64,000 bases of DNA from Curvularia clavata (GCA_023920165.1 CP089277.1:4340001-4404000); one strand, 5' to 3'. Counted from the first letter of the stretch, positions 14,901 through 41,358 are shown. Notes: generated by a model not told the origin, from the sequence alone. Program-made: numbers and translations.

Positions 14901-14940
14901 GGTGGTGGAGTTATGTGGTGTTGAAGAGAATGGATTACTA

Positions 14941-18771: not shown

Positions 18772-18911
18772 TACTCTGACTTAAAAACGCGCGTATACGA
18801 CCCAGATCAGACGATATTAATAATCCTTATCTATTATAGTCTAGCGCAAATTAGCCTCTTGGGATTTGCGTTTTAGTGCTAGCGTGAGCTTACATAAGTG
18901 AGATCATGCTA

Positions 18912-20537
18912 ACACCCCTGTGACAATAAAAGTGTCCGCCCCGAGCACGGGCCCCCAACCACCAAGCTAGCTTCTCCTGCCCACTACAGCTTTGCACCAC
19001 CACAACTCCATCAATATGTAATATTTTTAAGCGATTTTCTTCGTCACATGACTCCTAAGACTCGTAGCTGTCGTTCTTCAAAGCCGCATCTCAATACACC
19101 AAAGCGGGCGCGGTTTTTTGAAGCTGTAGATCGTGGCGGTGCAGAACCCCTAAGCTCCATATATGAACAGTTCAATATTAACGAGAGGACTGGCCGACGC
19201 TACCTTCGAGATCGCGATTTATATGGCTCTCTTGCTGACTTCTGATCTAAACTTCGAGTCTATAAGTAAGAAATTACTGGAAGCACTGGCTCTGGACGCC
19301 CAACAGTCGTGTCAGACGATTAGTTACATGCTATGCTTAAAGCTCTACTAGAAGTCCGATCTTCTAAACTCTTAGATCAGATATCGCGAGTAGGTATATT
19401 AGCGTCTAAGCGGACTGTCCAGCGCCGTCTCCGGAGGATGAATGCTAGAGTCTATCGAGCTGCTACGTCTAAAAGAATTACTCTAGCCTAAGCCACCCAG
19501 CGTCGTCATTACTGCGAGAAATATCGACTCAAGCCTATCCATGGCTTCTGGGATGGAGTAATGTTTACTGACGAAGCTTATATGTCGATGAGCGAGCTGC
19601 CGCAGCAGAATATTTTACGGATTCAAGGTGAAAGAAATATCCTAAAAAACATACTCTTAACTCCTTCAAGAATAGCTACGGACCTACACTTTGCTGTCTG
19701 GGTGAATTACTATGATAGACAAGCCGATCTAGTCTTTTATAATGATGAAATGGACGACGTTGAGATTAAAAAACCACCACCAAAACTACGACGTCGTCCG
19801 ACGACTGAGACTGATGATGTATATTAAGCCCGGGTGGCTGACTGGGAGGCTTAGAAAGCTCTTAATCTAATTATTTCTCGTCCGGGCAACTCTATGACGG
19901 CAGAATATTATACTAAAAACATCCTCCCAATCTATGGCGACGCCTACATCTCGCTAGTCTCTCAGAGTAACTCACTCCGCGCCCACATCCACCAAGATTA
20001 TCGGTATAACTGGTATCTTGTTGAAGACAACGACCCAAGTCATGGCACTAAGAATCCAGTCTCAGTGCCGTCGCGATATCGAGAAAATCACGGCATCAAG
20101 ACACTACGTCACCCAGCTAACTCACCAGACTTCAACCCAATTGAGAGTCTTTGGGAGCTAATTAAAGAACGAGTAAAACGAAATATTAGGAATATCAACA
20201 CTATAAGCGATCTTAAAGCTGCTCTATAAGCAGAGTGGAGAAATATTAGTCAAGACGACGTCCAGCGGCGGATTAGAGAGATGCCAAAGAGACTGCAGAA
20301 AGCTTATCAGCATCCAGAAGTTCGAGTCAAAACACGACTTTGGTAACTCAACACCAAAAAACTAGGTTATACTACTATTAATATACAAATATTTGGCTTC
20401 AAAAACGCTCTAAAACCAGCCTTCAAGTGTTGCGATAGTGATACACACAATCAATATGTTGGGTTGTATGAGGTTGTCACCCAAAACAGCATAGCGTCGG
20501 AGTGTCGGAACGGACATTTTTTTTGTCACAGGGGTGC
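18912..20537 (+). mobile_element. Decayed Tc1-like transposon
   Basis: TIRs cacccctgtgacaa…tgtccg / cggacat…ttgtcacaggggtg, with TA flanks (18910-11, 20538-39). Confidence 0.85.
19048..20346 (+). pseudogene. Tc1-like (DDE_3) transposase pseudogene, D-D38-E spacing
   Basis: MFTDEA, VEDNDPSHG and HPANSPDFNPIESLW motifs, with multiple in-frame stops. Confidence 0.85.
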
Positions 20538-20567
20538 TAACGTGGCAACACAAAATAGTTAATGTGA

Positions 20568-21356
20568 GTGCGTATATTTACTAGCACACGCAATTCGCAA
20601 ATACTGGTTATTACGACAACTATGCCTACTGATACTAGCCTGGCAGGAGGCGTTACCATTGCTTCGAACTGGAGGGATGGAGGTGTACGGGTATCAGTAA
20701 CGAGGACGTACGAGCCGGAGGCGATTGATGAGGCTACCTTGGAATGGGTGAAGGGCCAAAACTGGTATTGCTTTGATACGACATGCAAGGCGACGCTATC
20801 ACACTTTACGTTATGGCCAAAAGCGATACTCTCGTCTATAAAACACGTTACGCTTACACGGACGATGATGGCTTCAGATGATCTCGACAACTACGCATAC
20901 GCAAATGATCTTGGGCGAAAACTACGAGAGGAAGTCATACTTGATAGTGTTACACTCGCAGTTCCACATGATAAGGGGTTGCTTAATATAAAATCAGATG
21001 AGTATGAGTGGTGGATGTGGACACTACATAAGGGGACGATTGATGGTTTTAAGGAAAGGCGTATTGCAACAGTTCGGTTTTTATTCCAGAGGCGTTTTAC
21101 GGCAGTCAAGGACGCAAAGAGTTTTCAATTGTATGGAGAGATTCAGGATCTAGTACTTCAACAGGAACATGAGGATTGGTTGCATGAGTGTATCAGAGCA
21201 AGAGATGAAGGATGGTATGACGATACTGTGATGGAAAAGACGAGAGAGGAGTATTTCAGGCATTTGTGGGAGCAATTGGAATATGTTATTGATATAGATA
21301 AGGAGCGAGAGGGTGAAAATGGTACTGTACTTATTCTACGACATAAACAGAGCTAG
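20568..21356 (+). CDS. Hypothetical protein, possibly the 3' part of a gene truncated by the Tc1 insertion
   Basis: 262-codon open frame starting just after the Tc1 TIR; first ATG at 20622. No recognisable motif. Confidence 0.35.
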   Translation: MRIFTSTRNSQILVITTTMPTDTSLAGGVTIASNWRDGGVRVSVTRTYEPEAIDEATLEWVKGQNWYCFDTTCKATLSHFTLWPKAILSSIKHVTLTRTMMASDDLDNYAYANDLGRKLREEVILDSVTLAVPHDKGLLNIKSDEYEWWMWTLHKGTIDGFKERRIATVRFLFQRRFTAVKDAKSFQLYGEIQDLVLQQEHEDWLHECIRARDEGWYDDTVMEKTREEYFRHLWEQLEYVIDIDKEREGENGTVLILRHKQS

Positions 21357-21778
21357 CTATAAGACCTAGACCTGAATGGCTAAGGGTATTAGGGTAAACA
21401 ATAGTTAGAGCTTCCCGCATAGACCTAAAGTTAATATGCACTATCCTCGATCCTATAATATCTTTGTCTTTTAATTATATATCTACACTATATATTAGAA
21501 ACTGAGGTACTATATAATTAGTATCTAAAACCTAGTCTATACGATTGAGTAGTCTGATAATATTATTATCTAATTCTATTATACATGTGGTAGGAAATAC
21601 AGTATTATGCTCAAATATGATTGCTTTTCTTTATCTGTTTTCGCGTTAGTGTAATGTTCTTGCTTTGTCTAATTTTAGTCTCGTACAGATTCTCTTTGTC
21701 AAAACCATCAGTATTGATGGTAGTATTTACTTTGTCTGTGGGCTGGGCTGAACTTTTGTTTTGATCCTGGGCTATATA

Positions 21779-24700
21779 ATGACAATCCTCGCGTGCCGGG
21801 ACGCCCGGTGTAACGGGACACTTTTTCTTCCGGACGTCCGGCATGCTCACACGATATATGTAAATTGGCCGGTTCAATGTGCATGTATACTCTAGCACTA
21901 GTCCTCCTACTGCATCCCCATCCGACATCAGAGAACGCGTTGCTAACTGTGCTGTCGCTCTTTTTATTAGTGCTGTCGACCAATCCTCTCTAAGAACTCC
22001 CCTGCTCGTTTGCGGCTACGTACATTCGCCAAGAGCTCGGCAGGTCAGAGAGCGAACTGAGAAGGCGAAGATGAAGACTCTCGCCCCAGAAAGTCAATTA
22101 AGGCATGGAGTGTGCAGTCCGGCAGTTTCTCCGCGCGAAAGGTAGAATCGTCACAATGTAGCTGCCCGGCCATGCGTCTTAAGCGAGCTTTCAGCTACAG
22201 TAGCGTGCTGAGACATCTGCAACTCTTACTGCGCACTGTGGCTGGGGGTTGTAGCGCTAGAAGTGATATTTCGGGCTGCTATTATTCCCGACGCTACAAG
22301 TAATCATAGCATAATCTTGAGTTCCCAATCTCCAGTACGCGCAACCCTTATTATGCGAAGTTACTAAGTACTTTAGTATAATAATATACTCTAACTAAAA
22401 CAAACTTGCCATGCTGCTAAATACACTAATAAGGTAAAAGAGGAAGGCAGGTTTACTTGCCCTTGCACAAAGCTATGCATCTAGCTAGATAATTACTTAA
22501 ATACTAGTCGCTTGGCTTCTCCTATGCTTCGGCCTCTCCATCTGAAACTTACTAGTCAAGACTACTTACAAGACAAAAGCACTTCGCTACGGTGTTGGCG
22601 ACATGCTCGGGTAGTAGGGTGGTGCTCTCCAAGGACAAAGCTGTACCCGTCACACGCCCTATTGTACAGATTGAGAGATTCCTTGTAGTCACAGAGCGTC
22701 GCAAGCAGGTGAGCAAGGCAGTACACGCTTTCTAGCGTGTTGAGGTGCTCGGGCCCAAGCACCTTCTCGTATCCTTCCAGCGCTCGTCGATATATCGCTT
22801 CTGCCTCCTCGTACTTGCCCTGGCTCGATAGTACCAACCCAAGGTTGTTGACGCTAGTGAGCGTGTCGGGGTGCTCGCGCCCAAGCACCTTCTCGTATCC
22901 TTCCAGCGCTCGTCGATGCATCGCTTCTGCCTCCTCGTACTTGCCCTGGCTCGATAGCACCGACCCAAGGTTGTTGACGCTGGTGAGCGTGTCGGGGTGC
23001 TTGCTACCTAGTACTCTCCTTCTCGACTCTATCACTTGCATATAGAGCTCTTCAGCTCTCTTGTATTGTCCATCACTCTGCAGAGCTCTAGCGCAATCTT
23101 CTGCAAGATTTGTTCTCTCCTCGTCATCATTCTTCTCACTATGCGACAGTGCATATTGAGCGTGCGGCAGTAGTCGCCTCCATTTACTTCTATTACTGTG
23201 ATCGCTGTTTAGAAACACCTGAAGCAGCTGCGTGACTGCGCGTTGAGTGCATTCATAAAGTCGTCCCTGTATCTGCAGCTGCTCTCGTAAGGATTGGTGC
23301 ACCAATCGATGCACGTCAAATGCTGACTCAGCAGGTCGCCTTGTGACGAGCGCATACTTGTCAAGTATCATGATCGCATCTATACGGGCCTGCGGCGAAG
23401 CTGCCTCGAGCAGATCGAGCGGAATGTCCTTTCGGTCTACGCACGCAGCAAAGTAAAGCTGCTCTATAGCAATAGCGTTGCTCTGCCGGACTTGATCTAT
23501 AGAAAGAGATAGTGTAGCAGCTACAGCCTTTCTTAGACCAGACTCTCCATGCTCGCCTTCACGCAAGTCATTGCTGTACTTGAGAGCTGCTTGGTCGTGG
23601 TCGTTTAGTCGTGCTTGGTACTACTGCACTGTTATATTGCTTGCATTTATGCACGCTGCCGCTTGCGACACTGCTAGAGGCAGGTACGATAGTTCTCTTA
23701 GCAAGTGTATGGCTCCCAGCTGCTCAGCATCGGAGAGCGGCGTTGTTAAACGAGATTGTAACATCCTCAGCGCCGTGTCTGACGCCAGCTCACCTAGCGC
23801 TACTACATCTTGTGGAGCAAGCGTCTTAACCGTGTCGCTTTCTGTAGTTGTGAAGATAACAGAACATAGCTTAGAGTGCGGCAGAAAGTCCGCTAAGCCT
23901 GTAGCTTCTGCTGTTGGCGAGCCACCATGCTGGACAGTTGTGCCCTCGACGTTGTCGAAGATTAGCAAACACTGCTGCGTACTTAGCTTTGCTATGCAAC
24001 GTTTCACAATCTGCTCTATGTCTGCCTGGTCACCATCACAACCAGGAACGCCGAGCTTCTGTGCAACACTAATATAGGACTGATCGAGACTGTCTTTGCC
24101 GCTCGCATCGATCCAGAAGACTGAACAATCCTTATATTTCTCTAGCGTTCTGTGTGCAACCTCGAGCGCGAGCTGCGATTTACCTATTCCGCCAGACCCG
24201 ACTATTGCAAGCGTTAAGGTAGTCTGTGTGTTGCTGAAGAGCTTCGCTTCTAGTTCCGCGAGCTGTATTTCGCGACCCACAAAAGACTTGTTGCGCGCGA
24301 ACGGAATGATCGACGGTGCGCGGCCGGCTCTCTCCACTTCAGCCTGCAGTCTTTCTAACGCACTCTCCCTTCCTTCGCCATAGGTTGCAGGCATAGAGAC
24401 GCCAAGAAGTCCCAGCAGGCAGTATACTATATCTTCTGTCTCGGTCGTTTCGCGACCGCTAACCCATCGCATGCGCTCAGATGTGCTGAACTGGTTGAGA
24501 GGATGGTTGCGCAGCGCTGCAAGCGGAATCCCGGTAATGCTGTGCAGTAGTCGGTTGAGAGAGGCTTTGTCGCCTATATGTTGCCCTTCGCACGAGGAGA
24601 ACTCCACAGATGCTGGCGCTATCAGCTCCTGCAGCGTCCATCCGCGAGTGAACCACTTGCTCTGCCGAAAGGATACATTCCGGTCACTGCATAAGACAGA

Positions 24701-25934
24701 CTCTGCCGAGGTCGAGGTCGACGCCGACACATCTGACAAGAAAACGTAGCATCGTGCCGCATTCTTGTACCACTGGAACATCGAGTTGATCGCCTTAGAG
24801 CGCTCACTGTTATTCCATCTATCGATACAGCATGTGTCAATCCAGAAGTACTGCAGCCCGTCCTGAGCTGCTTGTTCGGCACAGAACCGTAGCTTCTGGT
24901 AGCCTTCCTCTTTCTTTTTGTAGTTTCCATTAAATATGTCTTCAATAAGAATCTCAGAGTCGCCCCATCGGTGCGATAGAATAGCGTAGGGCGGGATCGG
25001 CTTGTCGCGAAAGTCTGTCAGGATCAGTCTGCCCGGTGCGTCTAAATGGAGGAGCCGCATGGCGCTTGCAGCTCGGACTTTAGTCTAAAGAACTAGAGGC
25101 ATGAACAACTTTTGTGGTAGATGAGTGAGAGCAGAATGTTAGCAGGAGTAGAATGGCATCTTTACGATAAAGCAGAGAAGGCAGTCTGGTGAGGCAGTGC
25201 ACACAGCCGGGCTGAAGATGCTGCTGGCTGCATTAAGCGCCCAGCGTCCTGCACTGCCTCCACTCACCATTTACACTAAGGCAGTGTTTGCCTTGCAAAC
25301 TCATGGCAGAAGAGTGTATATATAGGTAAGGTGCTAGTAACATAGCTAACTAATCTATAAAGGTTATCGTTATAGCGTCTCGCTTGGCTCTATGCGACGG
25401 GGGCGGCTGCCTACACGGCCCGGGAATAAGAGCTGTCTAAGGTCAGGCGATGAGTGAGAGCCGCAGCTCTCAGCCACAGCGCGCAACCCCTCGCAGATAT
25501 CTCAGCACGCTACCGCTGCCAAACGCCGCTAAAGTCGCACGGCCGGCTTGTCGCGTTTTGACGATGTTGTCGCCAGCGCGGAGAAACTGCCGGGATTCAC
25601 ACTCCTTACGTTAAGTCGATTCTTTAAGTGTGCAGTCTTGATCTTTGCCATCTTAGCTTTCTTTCTAGTCTACCGAACTATGTAGAATTTTATGCTGTCG
25701 CGAATAAACAAGGGTGTATTAGAGGTGAGTCGATAAACGGCACTGACAGAACGAGCGACAGCATAGCCAACAACACGCTTTTTGGCGTCGGAGGGTGATA
25801 CGCTGGGAGAGCAAGAGCTGTAAAATTGATACGAATTGTGTTTGTCTATTTTTGAGTACGTTACACGCAACCCGAGCATCCGGAAGAAAAGGTGTCCCGT
25901 CACACCGTGCGTCCCGGCACGCGAGGATTGACAT
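21779..25934. mobile_element. Non-autonomous long-TIR element 1 carrying a HET-NB-ARC-TPR gene
   Basis: Left end atgacaatcctcgcgtgccgggacgcccggtgtaacgggacac matches the reverse complement of the right end (gtgtcccgtcacaccgtgcgtcccggcacgcgaggattgacat). Similarity runs ~500 bp inward (21779-22290 vs 25420-25934). TA on both sides. No transposase inside. Confidence 0.8.
22562..25060 (-). pseudogene. NLR-like HET-NB-ARC-TPR gene with a single premature stop (TAG at 23621-23623)
   Basis: HET domain (YAILSHRW, YFWIDTCCID, WFTRGWTLQELIAP), Walker A GSGGIGKS, Walker B LLIFDNV and 42-aa TPR repeats (LGxEHPDTLTSVNNL). The two track ORFs are in the same frame across one TAG. Confidence 0.9.
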
Positions 25935-26091
25935 TAGTATAGTAAATAATATATAGTTATTATTCTCGCTTTATCTATCGTTGCATACGTAGTTATTAAT
26001 AAAACTTAGATTCTAGTGAAAGCTGAACCCTGCACTTGAGCACTCAATTTACAGTCTATACACGATGATACAAACAATCATTCAGCCCTCT

Positions 26092-26950
26092 TTAAAATTT
26101 AAAGCTTCTAATGACAATCTTGACAAGTCTACGTGACAGTCTTGAGATCTTTTTCGAAATCGGTCCTGCAAGCTGCTGTTCTTGTAACGCACACATATTA
26201 GTGTAATGCTGGCAACAAGCTAGGGTAGTAGGATGCCCTTCTCTAAGAATGAGGTTGTATCCAGTAGACGCCCTCTGATATAGACGTAAAGGCTCATCTA
26301 TACAATGCTGCTCAGCAAGGGAATAGGCAAGATAATAGACGCTAGTCAGCGTGTCTAAATGCTCAGGCCCTAATACCTTCTCTCGCAGCGCCAGCGTCTG
26401 CCGGTTTATCACTTCAGCCTCTTTATGCTTTTTCTGGCTACTTAACACCTATGCTAAGTTGCTTATACTAGTTAGCGTGTCCGGATGCTTAGGCCCTAGC
26501 ACCTTCTCTCGCAGCACTAGCGTTTGCCAGTTTACTTCCTCTACCTCCTTGCACTTTCCCTGACTATTTAAAATCTAAGCTAAGTTATGCATGCATGTTA
26601 GCGTAGATGGATGCTCACTTCCTAGCACCTTCTTATATTAGGCAAGTGTCTGCTCATTTATGGCCTTAGCCTCCTTATACTTTTTCTGGCTATTCAGTAC
26701 TAACGCTAAGTTATACATACTTGCTAGCGTAAACGGATGCTCAGACCCTAGTATCTCTGTACTTAACAGCGATGCTTTTCGGTGCGCCGTCTCCGCTAAT
26801 CTGTGTTGTCCTAAATTTTCCCAAAATTGGCCTTTTTGTTTAGATAGTAAAGCCCACTTCTCCTACTCGCTATATCTATCCGACCAACCATCAAACGCTA
26901 TATGCACTGCTTGTTGCATTTCTAGAAGCCTCTCAGTTATGAAACTTGGC
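26092..26950 (-). pseudogene. RIP-degraded TPR-repeat (NLR C-terminus-like) gene remnant
   Basis: Repeats of LGxEHxxTLTS/ASM with in-frame stops (e.g. …EQTLA*YKKVLG) and an HPTTLACCQHY tail. Confidence 0.7.
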
Positions 26951-27348
26951 GGTCTTCTGTGGCTCTTCAAAGATGTGTATCCAGTTATTGTCGTACAAAT
27001 CTTGACTACCTAGGCATAGTAGATCCTAAGTAGAACGTCGGAAATCCAGCTATCGTAAGTTGCAAAACCGCCCTCACCCTTTGTGCAAGCGACGATTTGA
27101 AACGACCCCTGTCAGCCTAGGGTCTCCCTTGCTAGTCTCCGCTAATCATAGACAGATAAGAGATACTAGCCCTAAGATAGCTAGCTCGTGACTATCGCCC
27201 ACGCTTACATGTAAAATAGGTCTATTGCAATACGTTAAGCAAGATACACAGCATAACGCTGGACTACAATATAGACCGACAGTTCTACGATTTATCCTTA
27301 TTAGGTAGTTAGCAAGTCGTTCAGCACGTACGGCAGATCAACACTAAG

Positions 27349-30300
27349 CTACTCAGCTTCCCACTGTTCTAGGGCAGCTAAAGAAGACTGAGCATCAGGG
27401 TGGCTGGCTTTCAGCACTCGCTGACGCTGCTGTACGCACTGGCTCATTAAGCCTACAGCATCTTCTGTCCGACCCTGTGCTTTCCATGTAAATGCCAGGT
27501 TGTGCATGCTGCTCAGCGTGTGTGGATGGTCTGCTCCAAGCTTCGTCTCGCGAGTCTCCATCACCTGCACGTCCAGCGTCTCGGCCTCGTCCCACCGGCC
27601 TTGCTTTCTGTATGTCGACGCCAGGTTGTGCATGCTAGTTAGCGTGTCTGGGTGGTCTGCTCCAAGCTTTATCTTGCGAGTCTTTATCACCTGTATAAAC
27701 AGCGCCTCAGCCTCGTTCCATCGGCCTTGGTTCCAGTATGTCGACGCCAGGTTGTGCATACTGCTTAGCGTAGAGGGATGGTCTGCTCTAAGCTTCGTCT
27801 TGCGAGTCTCCATCACCTGCATGTCTAGCGCCTCGGCCTCGTCCCACCGGCCTTGGTTCCTATATGTCGACGCCAGATTGTGCATGCTAGTTAGCGTATC
27901 TGGGTGGTCTGCTCCAAGCTTCGTCTTATAAGTCTCCATCACCTGTACGTCCAGCGCCTCGGCCTCGTTCCATCGGCCTTGGTTCCTGTATATCGACGCC
28001 AGATTGTGCATGCTGCTCAGCGTAGAGGGATGGTCTGCTCCAAGCTTCGTCTTGCGAGTCTCCATCACCTGCACGTCCAGCGCCTTAGCATCGTCCCACC
28101 GGCCTTGGTTCGTGTATGTCAACGCCAGGTTGTGCATACTAGTTAGCGTGTCTGGGTGGTCTGCTCCGAGCTTTATCTTGCGAGTCTCCATCACCTGCAC
28201 AAATAGCGCCTCAGCCTCGTCCCACCAGCCTTGGTTCCAGTATGTCGACGCCAGGTTGTGCATGCTAGTCAGCGTGTCTGGGTGGTCTGCTCCAAGCTTC
28301 GTCTTGTAAGTCTCCATCACCTGCACTTCCAGCGTCTTGGCCTCGTCCCACCGGCCTTGCTTTCTGTATGTCGACGCCAGATTGGCTATACTAGTTAGCG
28401 TGTCTGGATGGTCTGCTCCAAGCTTCGTCTTATAAGTCTCCATCACCTGTACGTCCAGCGCCTCGGCCTCGTTCCATCGGCCTTGGTTCCTGTATATCGA
28501 CGCCAGATTGTGCATGCTGCTCAGCGTAGAGGGATGGTCTGCTCCAAGCTTTGTCTTGCTTGTCTCCATCACCTGCACGTCCAGCGCCTTAGCATCGTCC
28601 CACCGGCCTTGGTTCGTGTATGTCAACGCCAGGTTGTGCATGCTGCTCAGCGTGTGTGGATGGTCTGCTCCAAGCTTCGTCTTGTAAGTCTCCATCACCT
28701 GCACAAACAGCGTCTCGGCCTCGTCCCACCGGCCTTGCTTTCTGTATATCGACGCTAGGTTGTGCATGCTAGTCAGTGTGTCTGGGTGGTCTGCTCTAAG
28801 CTTCATCTTGCGAGTCTCCATCACCTGCACGTCCAGCGCCTCGGCCTCGTTCCATCGGCCTTGGTTCGTGTATGTCGACGCCAGGTTGCCTATGCTAGTC
28901 AGTGTATCTGGGTGGTCTGCTCCAAGCTTCGTCTTGCAAGTCTCTATCGCCTGTACTTCTAGCACCTCGGCCTCGTCCCACCGGCCTTGCTTTCTATATG
29001 TTGACGCCAGGTTGGCTATGCTAGTCAGCGTAGAGGGATGGTCTGCTCCGAGCTTTATCTTGCGAGTCTCCATCACCTGCACAAACAGCGTCTCAGCCTC
29101 GTCCCATCGGCCTTGGTTCCAGTATGTCGACGCTAGGTTGGCCATGCTGGTCAGCGTAAAGAGATGGTCTGCTCCAAGCTTTATCTTGCGAGTCTCCATC
29201 ACCTGCACTTCCAGCGTCTCAGCCTCATCCCACCGGCCTTGCTTTCTATATGTCGACGCCAGGTTAGCTATACTGGTTAGTGTAGAAGGATGGTCTGCTC
29301 CGAGCTTTGTCTTGCTCGTCTCCATCACCTGCACAAACAGCGTCTCAGCCTCATCCCACCGGCCTTGGCTCGTGTATGCCGACGCCAGGTTGGCCATGCT
29401 AGTTAGCGTAAAGAGATGGTCCGCTCTAAGCTTCGTCTTGTAAGTCTCCATCACCTGCACAAACAGCGCCTCAGCCTCGTCCCATCGGCCTTGGTTCCAG
29501 TATGTCGACGCCAGGTTGGCCATGCTGGTCAGCGTGTGTGGATGGTCTGCTCCGAACTTCGTCTTGCTCGTCTCCATCACCTGCACCTCTAGCATCTCCG
29601 CATTAGACCATAGCCCTCCAAGTTTGTATGCTAATCCGACCATAGCTATGCTCTGTAGAGTCTCCATATGCTCTTCACCTAGCACTCTCTTCCGCGCCTC
29701 CATTGCCTTTATAGCGAGCATTTTAGCATCAGTAACATTTCCTATCCTCTCTGCAAACCACGCCGCACGGTAGAGTACCATCGCCCAATCTACTGTTGAA
29801 GATTCGTCTTTAGGTTGCTGTTCTACGGCGGCCTTGGCATGCGCATAGAGTGCTCGACAAACTGCCCAGTTCTCGTACTCTCCTGTTGGAAACGCTGCGT
29901 GTAGATTGCTAATAAACTGCTGCTTCCACCGCTCGAGCTTGTTATTATCCTCGAGCCATTTCCGCATTGCTAGTTGCACTAGCGCATGCATCTCAAAGCT
30001 CGTGCCAGTAGTATCGACATAAATGAAGCAGAAGTTTCGCAGCACTGCTACGGCGTCTTCGAATTCGTCGTCACCTGCACCAGACTGGGAAGTATCGCTA
30101 TCTGACTCATCGTCACTGTCTGCCTTTATCTGGCCCGTCTGGGCTTCTCCTCGCTCAGCGTGAGGCTGAAGCAGGGCTGCTGGAATACCTTGTCGGTCAA
30201 AGAAGCTCATCAGCGAGAGCAGGTCTGCTGCGGCTGGCTGCGTCTGTCGTATATACTCAAATGAGATTAGCCATGTAACAGCAATCGCACTCTTCGCTTC

Positions 30301-31324
30301 CCAGTCGCGCCGGAGCTGGCTGGCATCGTGGGCAAGGAGACGTAGCCGCTTGCGGTCGCTCTTCCTAAACTCTTCGAGGTACTTTGCCACCGAGTATAGC
30401 GGTGCTCTTCGTGAGATGTACGCTGCAGCTTGCACAATAGCGAGCGGTATATACTCGAGCTCCACTGCGAGCTCAGCGACATTGCTTTTGTCACTCTGCG
30501 CTCCCAGCTTCTTGCTAAATAGCGCTAACGCCTGCACCTCGTCCATCGGCTCTACATCAAGCACGTCGCGTCCTTCAACTAGCTTCAGCGCCGCGTCCTT
30601 ATTCCGCGTCGTTATGAGGATCGAGCCGTGCTCGCAGTGGGGGAGGTACTCGCGCAGTAGTCTGCCAGCGCCTGTTGCGTTAGCAGCCTGGCCGCCTCTA
30701 TCAGCTCGAACATCAAGAAGGCGAGCGTCGTCAACGTTGTCTAGCACAAGCAGCCACCGCTGCTTGCAGTCGCATAGCCAGTCGTGCACCAGCTTGAAGA
30801 TATTCGCCTGCGGGTCTCGCCGCCCAGCGATCTTAGCCCGGTCGGCGATATCGCGGAAGCTCTGCTCGAACCGGGCCGCGTTGCTGGCGTGCATCCAGAA
30901 CACCCAAGTCTCGGGCGACCGCTCGCGTATGCGGTATGCATATTCGATGGCGAGCTGCGACTTGCTTCTCTGCTATTAGCGTGTGATACTAGATGAGCAA
31001 GCGTTTGCCTACCCTACGCCGCCGAGGCCGACGAGTGCAGCACGCGCGCCCGGCACAGCGCATATCTGGTCAACCTTGTCGAGTGTGGTGCCGCGCTCGA
31101 CGAAGTCGGTATCGCGGGCGAACGGTATAAGGATAGATGGGAGTGGTGGAGTCTCGCGTCGTTCTAAGGCGAGAGTGTGGTTAGTGCGTGTTCGGGCGCT
31201 GAGTCTCCGTAGGGTAGTCCCGCAACTTACCAGGTGGTAGGTAGAACGTAGCGCTCGCCGGGCCGTTGATAATACCAGCCTGGAAGCCGGCGTTCGAGTC
31301 GCTAAACGAGATGGCGGAGGCCAT
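27349..31324 (-). CDS. NLR with N-terminal PP (pseudo-palindromic, RHIM-like) amyloid motif, NB-ARC domain and ~18 TPR repeats (PNT1-like); exons 31324-31231, 31163-31013, 30964-27349
   Basis: The spliced N-terminus is MASAISFSDSNAGFQAGIINGPASATFYLPPERRETPPLPS…ALVGLGGVGKSQLAIEY. GT-AG introns at 31164-31230 and 30965-31012, the second splitting Walker A. Walker B WLLVLDNVDD, IPLAIVQAAAYI, FEMHALVQ, then 42-aa TPRs. Confidence 0.9.
27400..29690 (-). repeat. Highly conserved 126-bp tandem repeat array encoding TPRs
   Basis: About 18 units of …LGADHPxTLxSMxNLAxTYxNQGRWDEAExLxVQVMETxKTK, near-identical at DNA level. Confidence 0.9.
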
Positions 31325-31571
31325 GATACTTTAGCAGAAGTGTGGTGTACATACAGTGGCGTCTGCTGCGAGGTCTCAGCTGGGCTTCAGCCGGGCTACC
31401 TGCGCCGCTGGCTTGCAGGACTCTCGGCCCCTACTTTGCAACTTTATAGCTACAGAGCCTCTTTGCTTTACGCCTCAGCTAAGCACACATCTTCTTTAAT
31501 CTCCTTATTTATACTGTTAACTCTACAGTCGCCTCTCCACTCTTTTTTCTTTAATTACTACCAAACACGAG

Positions 31572-32230
31572 ATGACAGATCCTCTCAGCATTACTGCCAG
31601 CGTTATAAGTATTACCGTACTAGCCTTGCACGGCATACGCTTGCTCATAGAAGACCTGCAGCTGCTCAAGGAGGCCCCTAAAACTGTCAAGCGCCTTTTA
31701 GAAGACGTAAAGTCTGTCGAAACATCGGTCAGATTACTTCAAAGTGTCGGAGAGAGAGAATAGAATCTTCTTGGTGCAAGACCAAATTCGGAGCAGACCA
31801 TTCACGAACGCTAACCAGCATGAACAACCCATCAGTTACCTACAAGCATCAAGGTCTGTGGGATGACGCCGAGATGCTAGATATGCAGGTAATGGAGACG
31901 AGCAAGGCCAAGCTCGGAGCAGATCATCCAGATACGCTGACCAGCATGTCCAACCTGGCGTCGGCATACTGGGGCCAAGGCCGGTGGGACGAGGCTGAGA
32001 CGCTGTTTGTGTAGGTGATGGAGACGAGCAAGACGAAGCTCGGAGCAGACTATCTAGACACGCTGGCCAGCATGTACAACTTGGCATTTGCATGGAAAGC
32101 ACAAGGTCGGATAGCAGATGCTGTAGGCTTAATGAGCCGGTGTTTACAGGGCCGTCGGCAAGTACTAAAAGCTAGCCATACGGACGTTCAGTCTTCGTTG
32201 ATGGTTTTAGAATAGTGGAAGGCAGGATAG
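31572..32230 (+). pseudogene. Truncated HeLo-like (HELL/HELLP-type) effector joined out of frame to a TPR fragment
   Basis: MTDPLSITASVISITVLALHGIRLLIEDLQLLKEAPKTVKRLLEDVKSVE…ERE*NLLGA is a HeLo-like N-terminus. From ~31778 the sequence switches to TPR units and a C-terminus similar to the neighbouring NLR (AFAWKAQGRIADAVGLMS), with stops. Confidence 0.75.
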
Positions 32231-34337
32231 GTTGGTGTTAGTTTACTACATAAGCTGAAGCAGTCGCTGCCTAGTCAGCGTAGAACGCAGACCTGGCAAT
32301 TTATTGTATCCGTGCCGAGGCTTAGCTGACGTAGCTTAGTAATAAGTTATGCTTTGGCACGGATAGCTTTTTGTTTTGCGTGTAGATCAATGTATTGTCA
32401 TGATTAGACCTGTTTTGCATACCAGAGTGGTCTCTGGTACCGAGCTAGCTGTCTTAGGGTTAGTATATTTTAGATCTCTGTGATTGGCGGAGCTAAGCAA
32501 GGGGTACCCTAGGTCTGCAGGGGTCTTTCCAAATCGTCGCTTGCGCAAAGGGTGAGGGCGGTTTTGCAACTTACTGTATAGCAAGGTAACGACAGCATGA
32601 ATAAAGATCCTAGAACAAAGAGAGTTGAGATGAAGACGGAAAGCTATTACACAGAAGAAATCTTATATGCTGAATATAAATCGGGTGCTGTCTTATTCTA
32701 TCACATAATCAGACAACTATTCATAATACTTGACTATCTATGGTTAATACACATCAGTAAGCTGCACACATCACAATCTACATCCTGGTTGTTTGACGCA
32801 GGCCTGCAAGGGATCGTCCATACCGAAGCCGCAGTAATTAGACGATCATAACAACAGACCATGAAAGTCCTTCCGCCCTTCGTTCTGTACAATTGCATCG
32901 ACTTATAGCTTTCCTCTAGGCATCGAAATACCCGTCTTCCAACACCCCCGCTTAATGATAGCTTGAAACCTGACGCGTGGCAGTAGACTTGCTATAGGTA
33001 TCATATGTAGTTGCTGCTACAAAATAATAGCCTATCTTACGGTGGGCTAATGCAGTTTTTACCAGAGGGTCTTGCTTCTTGGCTGGTGACCACTGCTTTA
33101 TCTTTGACACAACTCCATCTGGCCTAGCGTAACAAGCAGGAACACTTTGAAGTGTGATGCTTGTTACGCTAGTCTCTCTCTGGTTAGGAGAGAATCTTGC
33201 CACTTAGAACTTACAAACGAGTAACGTCCGTCCCTGTGGGTCAAATATCCCTGCGCAACGAATCACCAACATTCCCCAAGCATCTTACGCCCAAGCCGCA
33301 GAGGCGCTTAGACATAATCACACGTTTATAAACTTTCTAAGCCTACTTCTATCTATTACAGGCCTTGAATAGCAAAATTACAGCAATTTAGGGTGTGTAT
33401 ACGAATCTTTCTTGTTAAGCGTAAAAGGCGCGATAACGATACACCCCTGTTCAGTCCTCTATAGAAGCAGATCTAGCTTATTCGGAAAGTTTATATTATG
33501 TATAATATGTCGAAGACGCTATGTGTGTTATATCAAGACATGCAGCATCTGTTCAGATGCACTCCGAGTTTGTCCGACTTGATATGCCAGTTCTCCGCGT
33601 TTAGCGAGAGGATTTAGAACGCTTACATAGCAGGATTGAGAACGCTTAGCGGCCTACGATGTACACCTGCGCTATGCCAAAACTGCTGAAGCTGTGGCGC
33701 AAAGCTCTAGAAGCTTCTACCCTGTACTGCGCAAGCGCGCAGCTAACGCATGCGCCGGTGTTTGCATGGAGAGCGCCTGTAGCTAGGATATACTAGATCA
33801 CTTTCTCTAGCTCTGTACAATGGGGTCTCGCGGCGTTGAGTATGATAGATAGAAAGGCGAATACAAATCGAGTTCAAATCTAGATGTTATCCACAAGTGT
33901 TGCATTTGCGCGACTGCTTTCTTATCTTGTTCTGCGTCGTAACGGGCAAGCTTTGAGTGCGTCGGTGCTTAGACCTCTACTAACAGCGCCAAGGGCCTCA
34001 TTACTCCAGCTCTCGATGCAGACGCGTTTCAGCCTTGCGAGCAGTGCACGGAGCATGCATGGCATGCCTTACCCCGCCTGCGGGTTCACACAGCCTTCAC
34101 CACCAAGTCAAGGATACAGCGAAAGCCGGCAGCCTCAGCTCGCGACATATTGACACATCACAGGATCCTGCTGGTACCTGAGCTAATGCACCTGCTCGTC
34201 GTCCTCTCTGTATGCTTACTATCTATCGGTAGCAGGAAAGCAGCTAACAAGCAAGCGCCCGCACTATCAGGCTACTAAGTTCAGCCTTTCGAGTCCTGTT
34301 CTTATCGCATATATCTACCATACACCCACACGAATCT

Positions 34338-37300
34338 ATGCGGCTCTTACAGTACAGTGAAAGCGGGGAGCTTAGCATCCATAGCTTCGACGATGGCGAC
34401 ATACCTCCCTACGCAATACTTTCACACACCTGGGGTGCAGATGGCGACGAGGTGACCTTTGCAGACCTCCAGACGGGCGGTGGCAAGATAAAGCTGGGCT
34501 ATGAGAAGATCCTCTTCTGTGGAAAACAAGCGCGGCGCGACAACCTCCAGTACTTCTGGATCGACACGTGCTGCATCGACAAGGCCAATAAGGCTGAACT
34601 CGCTTTCTCTATCCGATCGATGTTTCGCTGGTACCGCGATGCAGCTCGGTGTTATGTATACCTGTCGGATGTCTCTACTCAACCTCTACTAGCTACCCAA
34701 GACCACCGTGATTCACAATGGCTTTTCTGGATCTGGATACTCTCTATCCTCTATACTATGTCAAGATGGTACGGCAGCACGATACAGCGCTACTTCTATT
34801 CGCGCTATGTTCCATGCACTCCAGTTGGTAACGATCTTGTGCGCAGCACGCAGATGCCTAAGTTCACGCTTAAAAAAAGCAGATGGTTCACCCGCGGATG
34901 GACACTACAGGAGCTTCTTGCACCATCTATAGTAGAGTTCTTCTCTAAGGAAGGGACCAAACTTGGCGATAAGTTATTGCTGGCAAAAGAAGTACGTGAA
35001 GTCACAGGTATCCCTAGTTCAGCGCTGCAGGGTGAACCGTTGTCCAATTTTGATGTTTACGAACGCGTCACGTGGATTGAGCATCGCACTACAACAATTC
35101 CAGCAGATCGCGCATATTCTCTAATGGGTATTCTTGGTGTCAGCTTGTCCCCAATCGATGGCGAGAATCTAGCTGAAGCAATGAAACGGGTTCTAGATGA
35201 GGTTGATAAGCAGAATAAGTGCCTCCAAGACTTGCGTCCTAGCAACCCGCGCGATGATAAGAAGCGGATTGAGGAGACTAAGGGCGGGCTGCTTGCAGGC
35301 GCTTACCGTTGGGTTCTTGACAACGACACCTTTCAGCAGTGGCAGCAAGATCCAGAGAGCCGACTATTATGGGTAAAAGGTGATCCTGGCAAAGGCAAGA
35401 CGATGCTGCTGTGCGGCATTATCGACGAACTACAAAACCTTACGCCGAAACCTACCCTTGTTTCATACTTTTTTTGCCAGGCGACCGACTCGCGTATTAA
35501 TAGTGCCTCAGCTGTGCTGCGGGGATTGTTGTATATGCTCGTGGACCAGCAACCATCACTTACAGTTCATATTCGCAAGAAGCACGATCGCGTAGGCAAA
35601 AGTTTATTTGAGGACGCGAATGCCTGGGTTGCTCTAATAGAGATCTTCGCCGACGTGCTGCGAGACACAGGCTTGATCACAACGTACCTAATTATTGATG
35701 CGCTCGATGAATGCATGACTGATCAGGTAAAGCTACTTAGCTTTATTGCAGAGCAGTCATCTGCGTGCTCTCACGTTAAGTGGATCGTGTCTAGCCGCAA
35801 CTGGCCAACTATCGAGGAACAACTAAAACGTGCAGAACGCAAAACGCCACTAAGCCTTGAGCTGAACGCTGAGTCAGTTGCAGCAGCAGTCAGGGTCTTC
35901 ATCCAGCAGAAGTCGTGTCAGCTAGCGCAAGAGAAGCGCTACACGCCAGAGGTACACGACGCAGTGCTCCAGCACTTGACATCAAACGCGAACGACACCT
36001 TCCTCTGGGTTGCGTTGGTATGCCAAGACCTCAAAGCAACGCCGAAGTGGGACGTGCTCGAAAAGCTAGCCCAGTTCCCGCCTAGTTTAGACTTACTTTA
36101 CAGGCAGATGCTAGATCAGATACGCAAGTCTAGTAGTGCTCGAAGATGTCTGCGGGTGCTCGCAGTGACTACCGTCCTATATCGACCCGTCGCAGTCGCT
36201 GAGCTAGTTGTGCTTACTAAGCAACTTGCTGACCTTGTTGATGACCTAGAGTCGGTGCGAGAGATTATTGGTCTTTGCGGATCGTTCCTTACGCTGCGCG
36301 ACGACACAGTCTATTTCGTACATCAGTCAGCTAAGGACTTCCTTATCACACAAGCGTCAAATGAGGTCTTTCCTAACGGTGCAGAGTGTGTGCATCAAGA
36401 TATCTTTGCGAAGTCACTTACCGTTCTGCAAAAGACACTCGATAGAGATTTGTATAACCTTCAAGCGCCTGGATATCCTATAGAAGACGTTAGGCTGCCT
36501 CTTCTTGATCCTTTAGCCGTGTCGCGCTATCCATGTATCTACTGGATCGACCACTTCTACGACTCGAAACATATGACACAAGCACATAGTGCTGCTAATC
36601 AAGAAGATACTAGGACTATAGAGACATTCTTTAGGCAGAGATACCTCTACTGGCTAGAAGCGCTCAGCTTGTGCAGAAGCATAGCGACAGGGGTAGTCTC
36701 GATAACAAAGCTTTGGGATCTAGTCCAAGTACGGCTCACGTGATCGTATATGCCTGCAGTCTTTTCAACGCAGTTGCTGACATGCACAGGGGCTTAAGGA
36801 CACAGATGCATTAACTGAGACTGTCTATGATGCACGAAGATTCGTTATGTATCACAAAGAAGCGATTGAGAACTATCCTCTACAAGCGTATGCATCTGCT
36901 CTGCTGTTTAGTCCAGCAGATAGTCTAACAAGAAGGCTATTTCGGCATGAAGAGCCGGCCGGCATAGGAGTCAAGCCAGCAATGAGCAGCAGCTGGAGCG
37001 CCTGTCTGCAGACGCTCGAGGGCCATAGCAGTCCTGTGAGCTTGGTAGCATTCTCACACGACTCAAGCCAGCTCGCGTCAGCGTCATACGACTGCACTAT
37101 CAAGATATGGGACACAAGCAGCGGGACATGCCTACAGACACTTAAAGGTCATATCAATAATGTTATGTCCGTGGCCTTCTCGCACGACTCGAGCCGGCTA
37201 GCGTCAGCATCAAGCGACAAGACTATCAAGATCTGGGACCTAAGCAGTAAAACGTGTCTGCATACACTTAAGGGCCACAGTAGTACTATTAGCTCAGTAG

Positions 37301-38952
37301 CCTTCTCGCACGACTCAAGCCAGCTCGCGTCAGCGTCCAGCGACAAGACTGTCAAGATCTGGGACGCGAGCAGTGGAACACGCCTGCGCACATTTAAGGG
37401 CCATAGCAGTACTATCAGCTTAGTAGCCTTCTCACACGACTCGAACCAGCTAGCGTCAGCATCATACGATAGAACTATTAAGATCTGGAACACGAGCAGT
37501 AGCATTTGTCTGCAGACGCTCAAGGGCCATAGTAATTGGGTTAACTCATTAGCCTTCTCGCACGATTCGAGCCGGCTAGCGTCAGCTTCAAGTGATAGAA
37601 CTGCCAAAATCTGGGACACAAGCAGCGGGACATGCCTACAGACACTCAAAGGTCATATCAATAATATTATGTCTGTGGCCTTCTCGCACGACTCGAGCCG
37701 GCTAGCGTCAGCATCAAGCGACAAGACTATCAAGATCTGGGACCTAAGCAGTAAAACGTGTCTGCATACACTTAAGGGCCACAGTAGTACTATTAGCTCA
37801 GTAGCCTTCTCGCACGACTCAAGCCAGCTCGCGTCAGCGTCCAGCGACAAGACTGTCAAGATCTGGGACGCGAGCAGCGGGACACGCCTGAACACAATCG
37901 ATGGCCATAGCGATGCTGTTACGTTACTAGGCTTCTCACACGACTCGACCCGGCTAGCTTCAGCGTCATATGACAGGACTGTTAAGATATGGGATACGAG
38001 CAGCGGGACATGTCTGCAGACGCTTGAAGGCCATGGAGATGATATTAGCTCCGTAGGCTTCTCGCATGACTCGACCCAGCTTGCGTCAGCATCATACGAT
38101 AGCTTGGTTAGGATATGGAACGCGAGCAGCGGGATATGTCTGCACACACTTAAAGGGCATAAAGATTATGTTAGCTCAGTAGCCTTCTCACACAATTCGA
38201 GCCAGCTCGCGTCAGCGTCTAGTGACAAGACTGTCAAGATCTGGGACGTAAGTAGCGGGATATGTCTGCACACACTCGATGGCCATAGCGACGCTATTAG
38301 GTTAGTAGTCTTCTCACACGACTCAATCTGGCTAGCATCAGCGTCCAGCGACAAGACTGTCAAAATCTGGGACACAAGCAGCGGGACGTGTCTGCACACA
38401 CTTGATGGCCATAGCGATGCTATTAGGTCAGTAGCCTTCTCACACGATTCGATCCGGCTAGCTTCAGCGTCAAGCGATAGAACTATTAAGATATGGGACG
38501 TGAGTAGCGGGATATATCTATATACGCTTAAGGGGCATAAAAGTTATATTAGCTCAGTAGCCTTCTCGCGCAACTCGAGCCGGCTAGCGTCAGCTTCAAA
38601 GGACGAGACTGTCAAGATCTGGGGCGTGAGCAGCGGAACGTGTCTGCACACCCTTAACATCAGCATGAGTCTTTCGAGGCTTTCTTTTGGCTCCACTGAT
38701 ACCGTCCTCCACACAGAAATAGGCACTGTCATTATCCCATCTTCCCAGGTTTCTAGCAGCGCAGACGTTGCAGTATCAAAACCACAGTACCAGAATGTCA
38801 GTCTAAGTCCAGATGGCGTCTGGGTGATGCGCGCTGGAGTCAAAAGATTAAGGATACCGTCTGAGTATCGGCCGTCATGCTCAGCCGTGAGTGGAGCTCT
38901 GGTAGGTATGGGAGTAGGCTCAGGAAAGGTTTGGCTTTGTCAGGCGATTTAG
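34338..38952 (+). CDS. HET-NACHT-WD40 NLR (HNWD / HET-E-like); exons 34338-36728 and 36790-38952, 1517 aa
   Basis: HET motifs (YAILSHTW, FWIDTCCID, WFTRGWTLQELLAP), NACHT Walker A GDPGKGKT, Walker B LIIDALDEC and FVHQSAKDFL. A GT-AG intron at 36729-36789 joins the two ORFs in frame. 13 WD40 repeats. Confidence 0.93.
37000..38655 (+). repeat. 126-bp tandem repeats encoding 13 highly conserved WD40 units
   Basis: Units of GH…VAFSHDSxxLASASxDxTxKIWDxSSGTCLxTL; repeats 2-3 are nearly identical to repeats 6-7. Confidence 0.9.
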
Positions 38953-41358
38953 GCAAGCAACAGTAGATAAATAGAAGACCTCTCTAAGCCCTTGTGTCTC
39001 TATACTTATTGAGAATGTGGGGGCTATACGATCCTCATTATGTATGTATATAATAGGAACCTGGAGAAGTCTATATGTACTCAATCGGTTTCTAAGAATA
39101 GGCAGCAACCGACTGCGCGCGTAAGCGGTGGCCAGACGAAGCAATCTTTGCGCCACAGCTCGATCTGTTTTGGTATAGCGTACGTGTACATTGCAGGCCG
39201 CTAACCTTTCAGTACTGGTTGTGTCAGCACGCTAAGTCTTCTCGGTTTATGCGATGGACTAGCACATCACACCAGAACAACTCGGAGAGCACCTGGAAAG
39301 TAGCTGCACATATCGTAAGAGTGGTACCGTATTTTTTAGCTAATTAAATATTTCTTAGGGGCTCTGAAGAATCAAGCGATAGTGCTATATGTAAAATAGC
39401 AGGGGTATTTTGCTGTTATAGCTTCTATGCAAAAGAAAAGAGGCTTAAGAACATAAGCTACAACGCTTTAATATTATTATATTGAGCCTAAGGTAAATAG
39501 AGATAGACACAAAGAATATCAGCTCATTGACCTAACTCTACATAATTGAGAAGAGTGGGCATAACATAGTTAATCAATGTTCGTGGTTCGTTGCGGGGGG
39601 ATGTTCGACCCACACGGACGGACGTTATTCAATTTTTTGAAATAATCGTCTCAAAGGACTGGAAACACACCCGCCAATGGCCGCAACGGTCTCATCTCTC
39701 AAGTGAACCACCCCAGAAACGCCCGGCATGCTACAATTGGCGCTACTACATACTTATAGATTACTAAACAGCCTTGGCCACTACAGCGCTTGCCAGAATC
39801 TTGGATAAATTGCGTCCTTCTATGCGGAGAATAATATTAGATAGTGAATCTATGATACACTTTTGCTAAGAATACTAGAATTTATACAATAACCGCCCTT
39901 CGTTTATATATCTACTAATTTGGTTCTATGTCTTTTATATTGCTTGAACTGTGTCTGCTTTTAAGCCCTCTAGACTTTCGACGCAGGACGCTCCCCTCGT
40001 TTCAGGTTTTTCTATTATTGCATTCTCTCGCTCTGCTAATTTTAACAATAGCTGCCTTTACACTTCTAAGCTTCCCTCAATTTCATGTATATTATGCTGA
40101 TTGTTCCCAACAATCCGTTGCCTGACATGACCTTTGTTGTTAAATACTCTGCCTTAGTACCTCTCCTGCTCTTTCTCGCGACAATAGCTATTGTTTTTGA
40201 TGAAATCGTAGAAAGTCTTCTCTGTTCTCCAAGCAGTAGGCATATTTGGATACCTCTAATTAGGTCGGTATAAGATATCTCTAAATACCCTAAGCTTTAG
40301 ACGTAAGTCTTTGCAAATTGCGCCAATTTTACCTTTTACTCTAACGTACGCATATTTATAGGCGTGAAGTCATGATATGACTCATGTAAGAATCGATCTA
40401 ACGACATATAGCTTGATTTTTTATTGTCGGTCTGAGCACCAGGGGTAGCAAGCAAGTAAGTCGCAGCACTCATCTATGCCCCTTTGCGGAAGTTCAAAAG
40501 AACCTAAACTGTTGTACGCAGCTTGCATATAATTATATCATGCTATGTAAAACTGGCTACATTAAAACGCATAAAATAGCACTAAAGAATTTATAAGTTC
40601 CCCTTGACAAAGGCCAACTTAATCTCAAAACAACTCTTTTCCATAACGATTTTTCTTCTCTATAGCCCGCAATTTGCTACCTATCTCTTCACAATATATA
40701 TACCGTTGTATCTGCCTTTTCACCTCTAGCACGCATAGATATCCCAATAGATTCTCTAACTCAGTACTTACTTATACTTTGAAAATTGAGAAGCAGAAGA
40801 CAGTGCGTAACAGACTCCACGAAAAGACTTAAATCAAAGAGTAATTAGGAATGGCATTTTGGGTCGACAATCGCCCTATATAACTTCTAAGCACGATAAG
40901 GTGTTGATAACTTTTAGTTTCTTTTGAGAGTACGTTGGACCGCGAAACCTCTAAACACCCTTTCCTAGTTGGTGGAAACCCTGGTAAGCTGGAACTAGAC
41001 AATCAAATACAGCATCGTGCCAGAATTTTTGATGACCCTGCGCTTCTATGAGTTGATTCCGGCCCACTAAGATTTTTGCTGCAAACGGAGATAACTTACA
41101 TGCATCTTAGTGCTAAAAGATTTTAGTTCTTTTGACAGTACATTGGACCGTGAAAATCCCTACATATTCCTGGTGGTATGCTATATTATGATACTTACTT
41201 CTAGCTGTCTTAGAATTATGGCGCATTAGAGCTATTAAGTGTGTCTAGCTAAGCATACGATCTAACACTAAAGTCAACTTTCTGATCTTTGTAAGTAGTT
41301 CTGTGCTAATATCGTATATTTATACCATAAATTAGAAGACTGTTACCCTAAAACACTA

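Follow-up and report, generated by a model that had tools for sequence, protein, structure and literature searches.

We analysed a 64,000-nucleotide stretch of the genome of Curvularia clavata (GCA_023920165.1, CP089277.1:4340001-4404000; "the window" below means the whole of it), in which three consecutive units, 4.2-6.4 kb in size, each hold a NOD-like receptor (NLR) gene between terminal inverted repeats (TIRs). These three units (Table 1) are most probably non-autonomous cut-and-paste DNA transposons that carry the NLR gene between their TIRs, units 1 and 3 coming from the Fot1/Tan1/pogo lineage. Unit 2 is probably an NLR-carrying element of a different end type (TA-CAGT; the hyphen separates the outer TA from the first bases of the element), and may be a chimera or carry an inverted duplication.

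Structure of the three NLR units

Inverted repeats at the three units had been predicted from the sequence alone (the original prediction), and BLAST recovered a pair at each of them within a few bases of the predicted ends, with E values from 2e-10 to 8e-40. The dinucleotide TA lies immediately outside both ends of each unit, that is, at 6 of the 6 predicted ends. As had been proposed, Pfam revealed no transposase domain inside any of the three units, and no transposase remnant was detected inside them at E values up to 5. The NLR gene is the main content in all three; the claim that it is essentially the only cargo fails for unit 2, where a second, truncated gene is present. The proposed architectures (HET-NB-ARC-TPR, PP-NB-ARC-TPR and HET-NACHT-WD40 for units 1, 2 and 3, respectively) were recognised by Pfam, except that the putative PP part of unit 2 is a short motif with a G-x-Q-x-G core. 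The plan of the fungal NLRs of the STAND class (signal transduction ATPases with numerous domains), namely an N-terminal domain, NB-ARC or NACHT and repeats, is present, and the genes of units 2 and 3 look intact given their predicted introns. The GC content of the units is normal (0.50-0.57), and the spacers between them are AT-rich (GC 0.40-0.46).

In unit 1 the inverted repeat pairs 21772-22244 with 25471-25942 over 481 nucleotides at 69% identity (E 2e-34), and the terminal 70 nucleotides are 87% alike. Its NLR gene is interrupted by one in-frame TAG (23621-23623); the corresponding residue is Q in three proteins of Exserohilum turcicum, which show 87-92% identity along 826 residues. Among 8000 candidates scored, this NLR has 1877 homologues at E values up to 1e-3, and the identity is 94% in E. 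turcicum, 86-88% in Bipolaris maydis and about 70% across Pleosporales.

In unit 3 the terminal repeat pairs 33219-33273 with 39576-39630 at 85% identity (E 2e-10), the terminal 55-75 nucleotides being 79-86% alike, and an inner block of about 165 nucleotides pairs 33541-33704 with 39146-39308 at 73% (E 4e-18). The same type of terminus, TA-ACGTCCGTCCC, was found 0.7-1.1 kb upstream of HET-NACHT-WD40 genes at three related loci, L048, L050 and L062 (related loci are designated by L and a number). L050 and L062 are 90-95% alike from exactly TA-ACGT onward, and their flanks are unrelated. Within the HET region of unit 3, the stretch at 34672-34882 measures about 210 nucleotides, compared with 66-101 in relatives, and adds 44 residues if read through; an insertion or an intron that has grown may account for it.

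The arms of unit 2 (27055-27224 and 32405-32574) are 81-82% identical over 170 nucleotides (E 8e-40), and a weaker inverted similarity continues inward through the TPR-coding 3' end of the NLR gene (27340-27803 vs. 31776-32239), so that the arms extend to about 750-800 nucleotides. The exon-intron model of this gene was derived from reading frames and GT...AG signals, not from RNA, and places one predicted intron inside the P-loop. The N-terminus of the protein bears a short amyloid-like motif with a G-x-Q-x-G core, which was compared with the PP motif by eye. The remnant that lies towards the right end of the unit is an inverted partial copy of 27306-27803, the NLR gene's own 3' end. The TIR of unit 2 recurs, after TA, at L009 (94% over 47 nucleotides); about 0.9 kb downstream of it follows a HET-NB-ARC-TPR gene whose NB-ARC domain is only distantly related to that of unit 2, and a 6.7-kb unit with TA-CAGT ends surrounds a HET gene at L019.

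Table 1. Features of the window; positions are counted from its first nucleotide. ORF, open reading frame; NRPS, non-ribosomal peptide synthetase; LTR, long terminal repeat.
Feature	Position	Strand	Observations
Unit 1, transposase-less pogo-type element, TA + TIR...TIR + TA	21777..25936	-	Inverted arms; ~3-5x depth; arm and NLR collinear with L001, L002, L003, L005, L006
Unit 1 left arm, 3' side of NLR	21777..22244	+	Terminal TIR of ~70 nucleotides and conserved inner block; invariant blocks common to L001, L003, L005, L060
Unit 1 right arm, 5' side of NLR	25471..25936	-	72-73% identical to arms of L001, L003, L005, from the terminus onward
Unit 1 NLR gene (HET, NB-ARC, TPR)	22562..25042	-	Pfam and translation
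Unit 2, TA-CAGT-type TIR element with NB-ARC-TPR NLR and truncated second gene	27051..32578	-	Inverted repeats; TIR recurs upstream of NLR in L009
Unit 2 NLR gene	27352..31330	-	5' end approximate: start giving MASAISF..., two predicted introns, 1207-residue ORF with 17 TPR_10
Unit 2 remnant	31521..32273	+	~60 residues of HeLo-like N-terminal domain (Pfam PigL_N), then 3 degenerate TPRs and C-terminal tail, with stops
Unit 3, transposase-less pogo-type element	33222..39627	+	Inverted repeats; terminus shared with L048, L050, L059, L062, all with HET NLRs
Unit 3 NLR gene (HET, NACHT, ~13 WD40)	34338..38949	+	Canonical intron ~36740-36780 before WD40 part
Stray C-terminal TPR fragment of unit-1-type NLR, between units 1 and 2	26173-26856	-	Pfam TPR_10/TPR_12; tblastn with E. 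turcicum P0001 residues 655-827, 50% identity
pogo fragment, inverted	13737-14987		Transposon-rich stretch of the window
Two tandem autonomous pogo/Fot1-type elements	14939-16797 and 16909-18773	+	DDE_1 ORFs of 554 and 572 residues; 68-nucleotide TIRs; TA-ACGT ends
NRPS ORF, open at the window's left edge	3-7280	+	Two condensation, AMP-binding, PP-binding sets and a methyltransferase domain
O-methyltransferase gene	10271-11980	-	
Two Ty3-type LTR retrotransposons	45088-52506 and 53945-61140		LTRs 100% identical (508 and 271 nucleotides); gag-pol ORFs intact; 5-bp duplications TATAA and GTTTT

Copies in the source species and at other loci

Contigs of the sequencing runs X1, X2, X23 and X3 were compared with positions 20500-40400 of the window. 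The share of sampled words of the window was 0.86 in X1 and 0.85 in X2, which are two runs of one organism, as compared to 0.11-0.22 in other organisms and 0.11-0.20 in X3-X22. In X1 the baseline depth was about 100, the bins of unit 1 reached 287-496 and those of the HET-NACHT part of unit 3 reached 230-301; by this contig depth, a rough measure, unit 1 is present in about 3-5 copies in the source species. Unit 2 was near 1x in X1, and its X23 bins reached 4-15 times the depth of a single contig. The flanks at 20500-21163 and 39756-40400 had depth 0 in X23, where the units were covered. Between organisms that carry different labels the units show 97-99% identity, and their flanks are not common to both. 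There are also joints, seen in single contigs, that connect conserved arm blocks of unit 1 or unit 3 and nothing else (25077>25421, 25492>25717, 25782>25883 and 39205>39558), which indicates diverged copies with the same layout. Moreover, one X1 contig of 6551 nucleotides contains a second unit-2-type TIR (87% identity) and TPR 3' end at the same spacing, and its homology is lost exactly at 27055.

The contigs also bear on the claim that the three TIR sequences are unrelated to one another, which does not hold for units 1 and 3. These two share the terminus type TA-A(C/T)GTC..., and paralogues of unit 1 in the source species end in the 13 nucleotides of unit 3. In fact, at 25921, 15 bases inside the right end of unit 1, five X1, two X2 and two X23 contigs depart as ...GGGACGGACGTTA and then run into differing flanks, and this terminus is the reverse complement of the first 13 nucleotides of unit 3. 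Four further contigs, all from X23, diverge exactly at the end of unit 1 (25936). A direct comparison of the arms among the three units gave only 10-11-mers (E 0.18-0.74), and two family-invariant motifs that occur in unit 3 at like offsets (about +218 and +400) are suggestive only.

A metagenome scan returned 80 loci, of which 58 were self-screened by BLAST after exclusion of 22 short ones; bracketing inverted repeats were found in four (L003, L010, L019 and L028). A short-word screen of L060, L064, L019 and L059 added no bracketing repeats, and a later repeat search gave a 31-nucleotide pair in L059 and none in L064. The eight closest relatives of the unit-1 NLR have 71-74% protein identity. 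The unit-1 arm (about 480 nucleotides) or its TIR lies upstream of the NLR in all five close relatives that have at least about 750 nucleotides upstream (L001, L002, L003, L005 and L006); L004, L007 and L008, with less than 350 nucleotides upstream, are uninformative. In the unit-1-type relatives the homology begins exactly at the terminus and all the flanks differ. TA was found outside 7 of the 8 aligned ends of this type (type A), the exception being TG in L002. Copies whose homology stops at the termini are thus seen at different loci, with unrelated flanks in L001, L002, L003, L005, L050, L060 and L062. At L001, a Tc1-like (DDE_3) transposase ORF (625-1491, minus strand) abuts the unit-1-type element, which seems to interrupt the ORF near its N-terminus, and the contig ends before the other flank.

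The most informative of these loci is L003, a complete element of 4.06 kb with both arms (561 nucleotides, 78% identity), whose left flank encodes part of a pogo-type transposase. When positions 217-4273 were removed and one TA was kept, the collinear match to the pogo transposase lengthened from 70 to 102 residues with no insertion or deletion at the junction; keeping neither or both TAs broke the frame. Since the host frame is restored only with a single TA, a transposase-less element of unit-1 type was inserted here as one piece with a 2-bp TA duplication. This reconstruction of an empty site shows that the TA is a true duplication in the family of unit 1; for the copies in the window the duplication is putative.

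The ratio of non-synonymous to synonymous substitution rates (dN/dS) was 0.09-0.26 in 8 of 8 NLR pairs, including the young pair L050/L062 (dS 0.13). These values indicate that the NLR cargo has been kept as a working protein in many copies, and the gene is broken in several others (unit 1, L003, L005 and L059). Unit 1 and L001 share 73% identity in their arms at a dS of 1.09, where synonymous sites are near saturation, which argues for constraint on the arms as well.

A pogo-type transposase beside NLR genes, and the alternatives

The assignment of the units to the pogo/Tc1-mariner group is borne out by L060, an element with the terminus and arm of unit 1 that encodes a DDE_1 transposase. Its unit-1-type TIR is at 2666, and its arm aligns over the full length with the arms of unit 1, L001, L003 and L005. 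The arm is followed by a DDE_1 ORF of 630 residues and then, about 400 nucleotides downstream, by a HET-NACHT ORF that is 59% identical to that of unit 3 and runs to the contig end; no inverted repeat was found between the two ORFs. L059 is a complete element of 5.9 kb, in which paired unit-3-type TIRs enclose the decayed C-terminal third of an L060-type transposase followed by a HET-NB-ARC-TPR gene. In L064 and L019, too, a relative of the L060 transposase is found next to a HET NLR. The decayed transposase of L064 is situated between the HET-NACHT-WD40 gene and a second NLR, with NACHT and ankyrin repeats (515-2962, minus strand), which is about 1.7 kb away from it, so NLRs cluster around the L060-type transposase. 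At L019 an ORF for an OTT_1508-like deaminase (3189-4160, minus strand) lies between the pogo transposase and the TIR-bounded HET unit.

Among homologous proteins, the best 150 matches to the L060 transposase are transposases and fragments, and the clade is a common Fot1/Tan1-type family, with 881 matches at E values up to 1e-40, many of them on contigs that, at about 2.1-2.5 kb, are as long as an ordinary element; the homologues carry source names such as "transposase tan1" and "HTH CENPB-type domain-containing protein". In the longer homologous proteins, three of three gene models (from Cladosporium fusiforme, Pseudogymnoascus australis and a Phaeosphaeriaceae species) consist of the transposase, or a piece of it, followed by NLR domains. 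As a control, NLR domains were present in none of 10 long, distant pogo relatives (28-34% identity). In one protein with 56% identity, P0176, the DDE_1 domain is preceded by a piece of NACHT; this protein is the only one of 13 scanned with Pfam that has an NLR piece.

The idea that non-autonomous elements had captured their genes independently is not supported, given that a transposase or its remnant accompanies an NLR in L060, in L059 (there between two TIRs) and, in the same order, in the three fused gene models. This co-occurrence suggests that the elements had an NLR before they lost the transposase. The lineage of units 1 and 3 has a TA duplication, termini of the form TA-A(C/T)GTC... and arms of about 480 nucleotides with conserved terminal and inner blocks; its fuller members carry a DDE_1 transposase and then the NLR gene in the same orientation. 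Units 1 and 3 would be deletion derivatives that lost the transposase and kept both arms and the NLR, and the copies in the window could move only if a related transposase acted in trans. The NLR may be of some benefit to the host or to the element. A broader reading, which we offer tentatively and regard as possible rather than probable, is that a Fot1/pogo lineage in Dothideomycetes and Leotiomycetes keeps an NLR death receptor as the element's own selected second gene and spreads NLRs within and between species, so that a sizeable part of NLR birth and death would be transposition. In that case the NLR might serve the element: it could, for instance, kill cells from which the element is lost or that encounter non-self, or protect the element from mycoviruses or competing elements.

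The units could instead be composites: solo miniature inverted-repeat transposable elements (MITEs) would have inserted independently on either side of resident NLR genes that themselves never moved, and every MITE would have a target duplication of its own. Their location in a transposon-rich island (pogo copies, a DDE_3 fragment and two young LTR elements) is in keeping with such an origin, and so are L002 and L005, which have one arm only. Solo arms were looked for elsewhere in the window by BLAST self-comparison and none was found, the depth of the arms in the source species equals that of the NLR and does not exceed it, and L001, L003, L005 and L006 have retained the spacing and order of arm and gene despite about 27% divergence. 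At L003, moreover, the host sequence on the two sides of the whole unit reads on without a break when one TA is kept. We therefore consider composites extremely improbable. A different objection is that transposase and NLR lie side by side because of an insertion preference or of shared junk regions, and that conserved genes whose regulatory flanks are inverted and conserved as well gave rise to the NLR-only units through ordinary duplication. The transposase clade is indeed abundant and mostly found on the short contigs without an NLR, the TIR pair of the NLR does not demonstrably include the transposase at L019 and L064, and the NACHT fragment that precedes the transposase in P0176 is what insertion into an NLR would give. 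This explanation is nevertheless very unlikely, considering that at L059 the transposase remnant and the NLR lie inside one TIR pair, that no TIR separates the two genes at L060, that the NLR-only units have at both ends the arm which precedes the L060 transposase, that the insertion at L003 is precise and flanked by TA, and that orientation and order are the same in 3 of 3 fused gene models.

For unit 2, an origin other than as one transposon deserves more weight, although we still hold it to be unlikely: it could be an inverted segmental duplication of the NLR 3' end, or two head-to-head members that became chimeric after an internal deletion, its TIRs being the outer ends of the rearrangement. 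The arms include NLR coding sequence, the inverted similarity running from the end through the 3' flank into the TPR-coding part, as would equally be expected of an inverted duplication or of two elements joined into a chimera. In addition, the HeLo-like N-terminus on the right side is abruptly joined to three TPRs with stops, and the unit is about single-copy in the source species. On the other hand, the outer boundary at 27053-27055 is common to three independent copies, namely the two arms and the X1 contig, as in a transposon, and the TIR of L009 starts at the same boundary, also with TA-CAGT. A chimera of two unit-2-type elements would still consist of NLR-carrying TIR elements.

That the units are mobile, gene-carrying elements is thus largely upheld at the level of families, which are multi-copy, place the same termini on different flanks and include the precise insertion at L003; it is not upheld for movement of the copies in the window. 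Several observations weigh against the interpretation of the three units as transposons. The arms in the window are diverged (69-86% identity) and the unit-1 NLR is broken, so that the window copies may be dead. No empty site and no presence/absence difference was found at the window locus, as X1 and X2, the two runs of the source species that were compared, contain all three units and no joint skips a whole unit; these runs are maybe of the same or nearly the same strain. Contig-based depth gives copy number only roughly. Of the 20 loci with adequate sequence on both sides, three were bracketed (L010, L019 and L028), in addition to L059 from the separate repeat search, and a TIR was recognised upstream in only 9 of the 49 loci with at least 1200 nucleotides upstream, plus three loci with a shorter upstream region. 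Since most related HET-NLR loci show no recognisable TIR, the link between NLR and TIR is lineage-specific and not general. L002 and L005 lack a recognisable 3' arm and have only a 5' arm or TIR. The right TIR of L060 is unseen, the contig ending before it, so this element is represented by its left end only; the transposase of L064 is divergent from the NLR in orientation and no TIRs were found there, and that of L019 lies outside the TIR pair. The arms of unit 3 gave no significant similarity to those of unit 1 or L060 (Smith-Waterman z 0.6-1.3), and no transposase matching the ends of unit 2 was found.

Known systems and the surroundings of the units

Fungal NLR repertoires are large, strongly variable between strains and fast in turnover, and this is mostly credited to ordinary duplication and to the shuffling of repeats. 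A small cut-and-paste transposon with a complete, selected NLR would directly copy, move and possibly exchange receptors for immunity and allorecognition, and movement of such units could help to explain the differences in NLR sets between strains. In unit 2 the receptor would travel with the remains of a likely partner gene. The defined transposase clade, ends and cargo make this a testable system.

Fot1/Tan1/pogo elements, the fungal Tc1-mariner type, resemble the units in the TA duplication, in the TA-ACGT start of the TIRs, as seen in the ordinary pogo pair of the window, and in the DDE_1 transposase of L060. Ordinary members measure about 1.9-2.5 kb and contain the transposase only, whereas the units have 4.2-6.4 kb, an NLR and arms of about 480 nucleotides with an inner block. 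Pack-MULE and other Pack-type elements of plants are non-autonomous TIR elements with a host-gene interior, mostly made up of gene fragments and chimeras. They have in common with the units a host gene sequence (by Pfam) between the TIRs of a transposase-less element; unlike in the Pack type as generally defined, the genes of the units are full length and under purifying selection, and in the relatives L059 and L060 the NLR is accompanied by a transposase or its remnant.

Transduplication was described in Pyrenophora tritici-repentis for a Tc1/Mariner element with an additional ORF and for hAT elements that carry a histone H3-like gene (Manning et al., 2013, PMC3538342). That case concerns the same fungal order and likewise shows a non-transposase ORF between TIRs that was multiplied in autonomous and shortened forms; the cargo differs, being a histone-like gene or a coiled-coil ORF, and the main text has no mention of NLR, HET or NACHT. 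Starships often carry NLR, HET or NACHT cargo (PMC9156397), and are defined by a DUF3435 tyrosine-recombinase "captain"; those described in PMC9594970 are far larger, one of them 294 kb. They are thus mobile elements with fungal NLR-type genes as well, but the units have 4.2-6.4 kb, DDE-type TIR ends and a TA duplication. Within the window, no Pfam match to DUF3435 was obtained among ORFs of at least 70 residues at 12-45 kb, nor in the 11 that were scanned of the 40 ORFs of at least 110 residues elsewhere; the units may still be part of a larger element that extends past the window. The amyloid signalling pair PNT1/HELLP (PMC7885112) is similar to unit 2 in that an NB-ARC-TPR gene with a short N-terminal motif adjoins the divergent start of a HeLo-like gene; in unit 2 the HeLo-like gene is cut after about 60 residues and has no C-terminal motif. 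No description of NLR genes inside Fot1/pogo-type TIR elements was found in full-text literature searches, in which Starships were the only reported NLR carriers; the supplements of PMC10799480, which lay outside this search, could list DDE_1-NLR fusions.

To the left of the units, the NRPS ORF and the O-methyltransferase gene indicate that a secondary-metabolite cluster adjoins the NLR units. The internal modules of the NRPS are about 67% alike (33-866 vs. 4491-5321). To the right of these genes lies the transposon-rich island, which comprises the pogo copies, the DDE_3 fragment, units 1-3, AT-rich DNA and the two Ty3-type LTR elements. The tandem pogo/Fot1-type elements are full length and 85% alike, and each 68-nucleotide TIR holds a direct repeat of an 11-mer. 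With their identical LTRs, both Ty3-type elements are very recent insertions, which suggests that repeat-induced point mutation is weak in this genome. When NLR pieces outside the units were looked for in the window, as a sign of genes split by insertions, the sole match was the TPR fragment between units 1 and 2, which is probably the remains of a fourth element. An element of about 570 nucleotides at 9340-9913, which has 83-nucleotide inverted ends (79%), no ORF match and no clear duplication at the coordinates used, may be a MITE. Finally, tandem-repeat arrays with internal direct repeats 74-89% alike are present in AT-rich DNA at 43366-43749 and 61289-61610.

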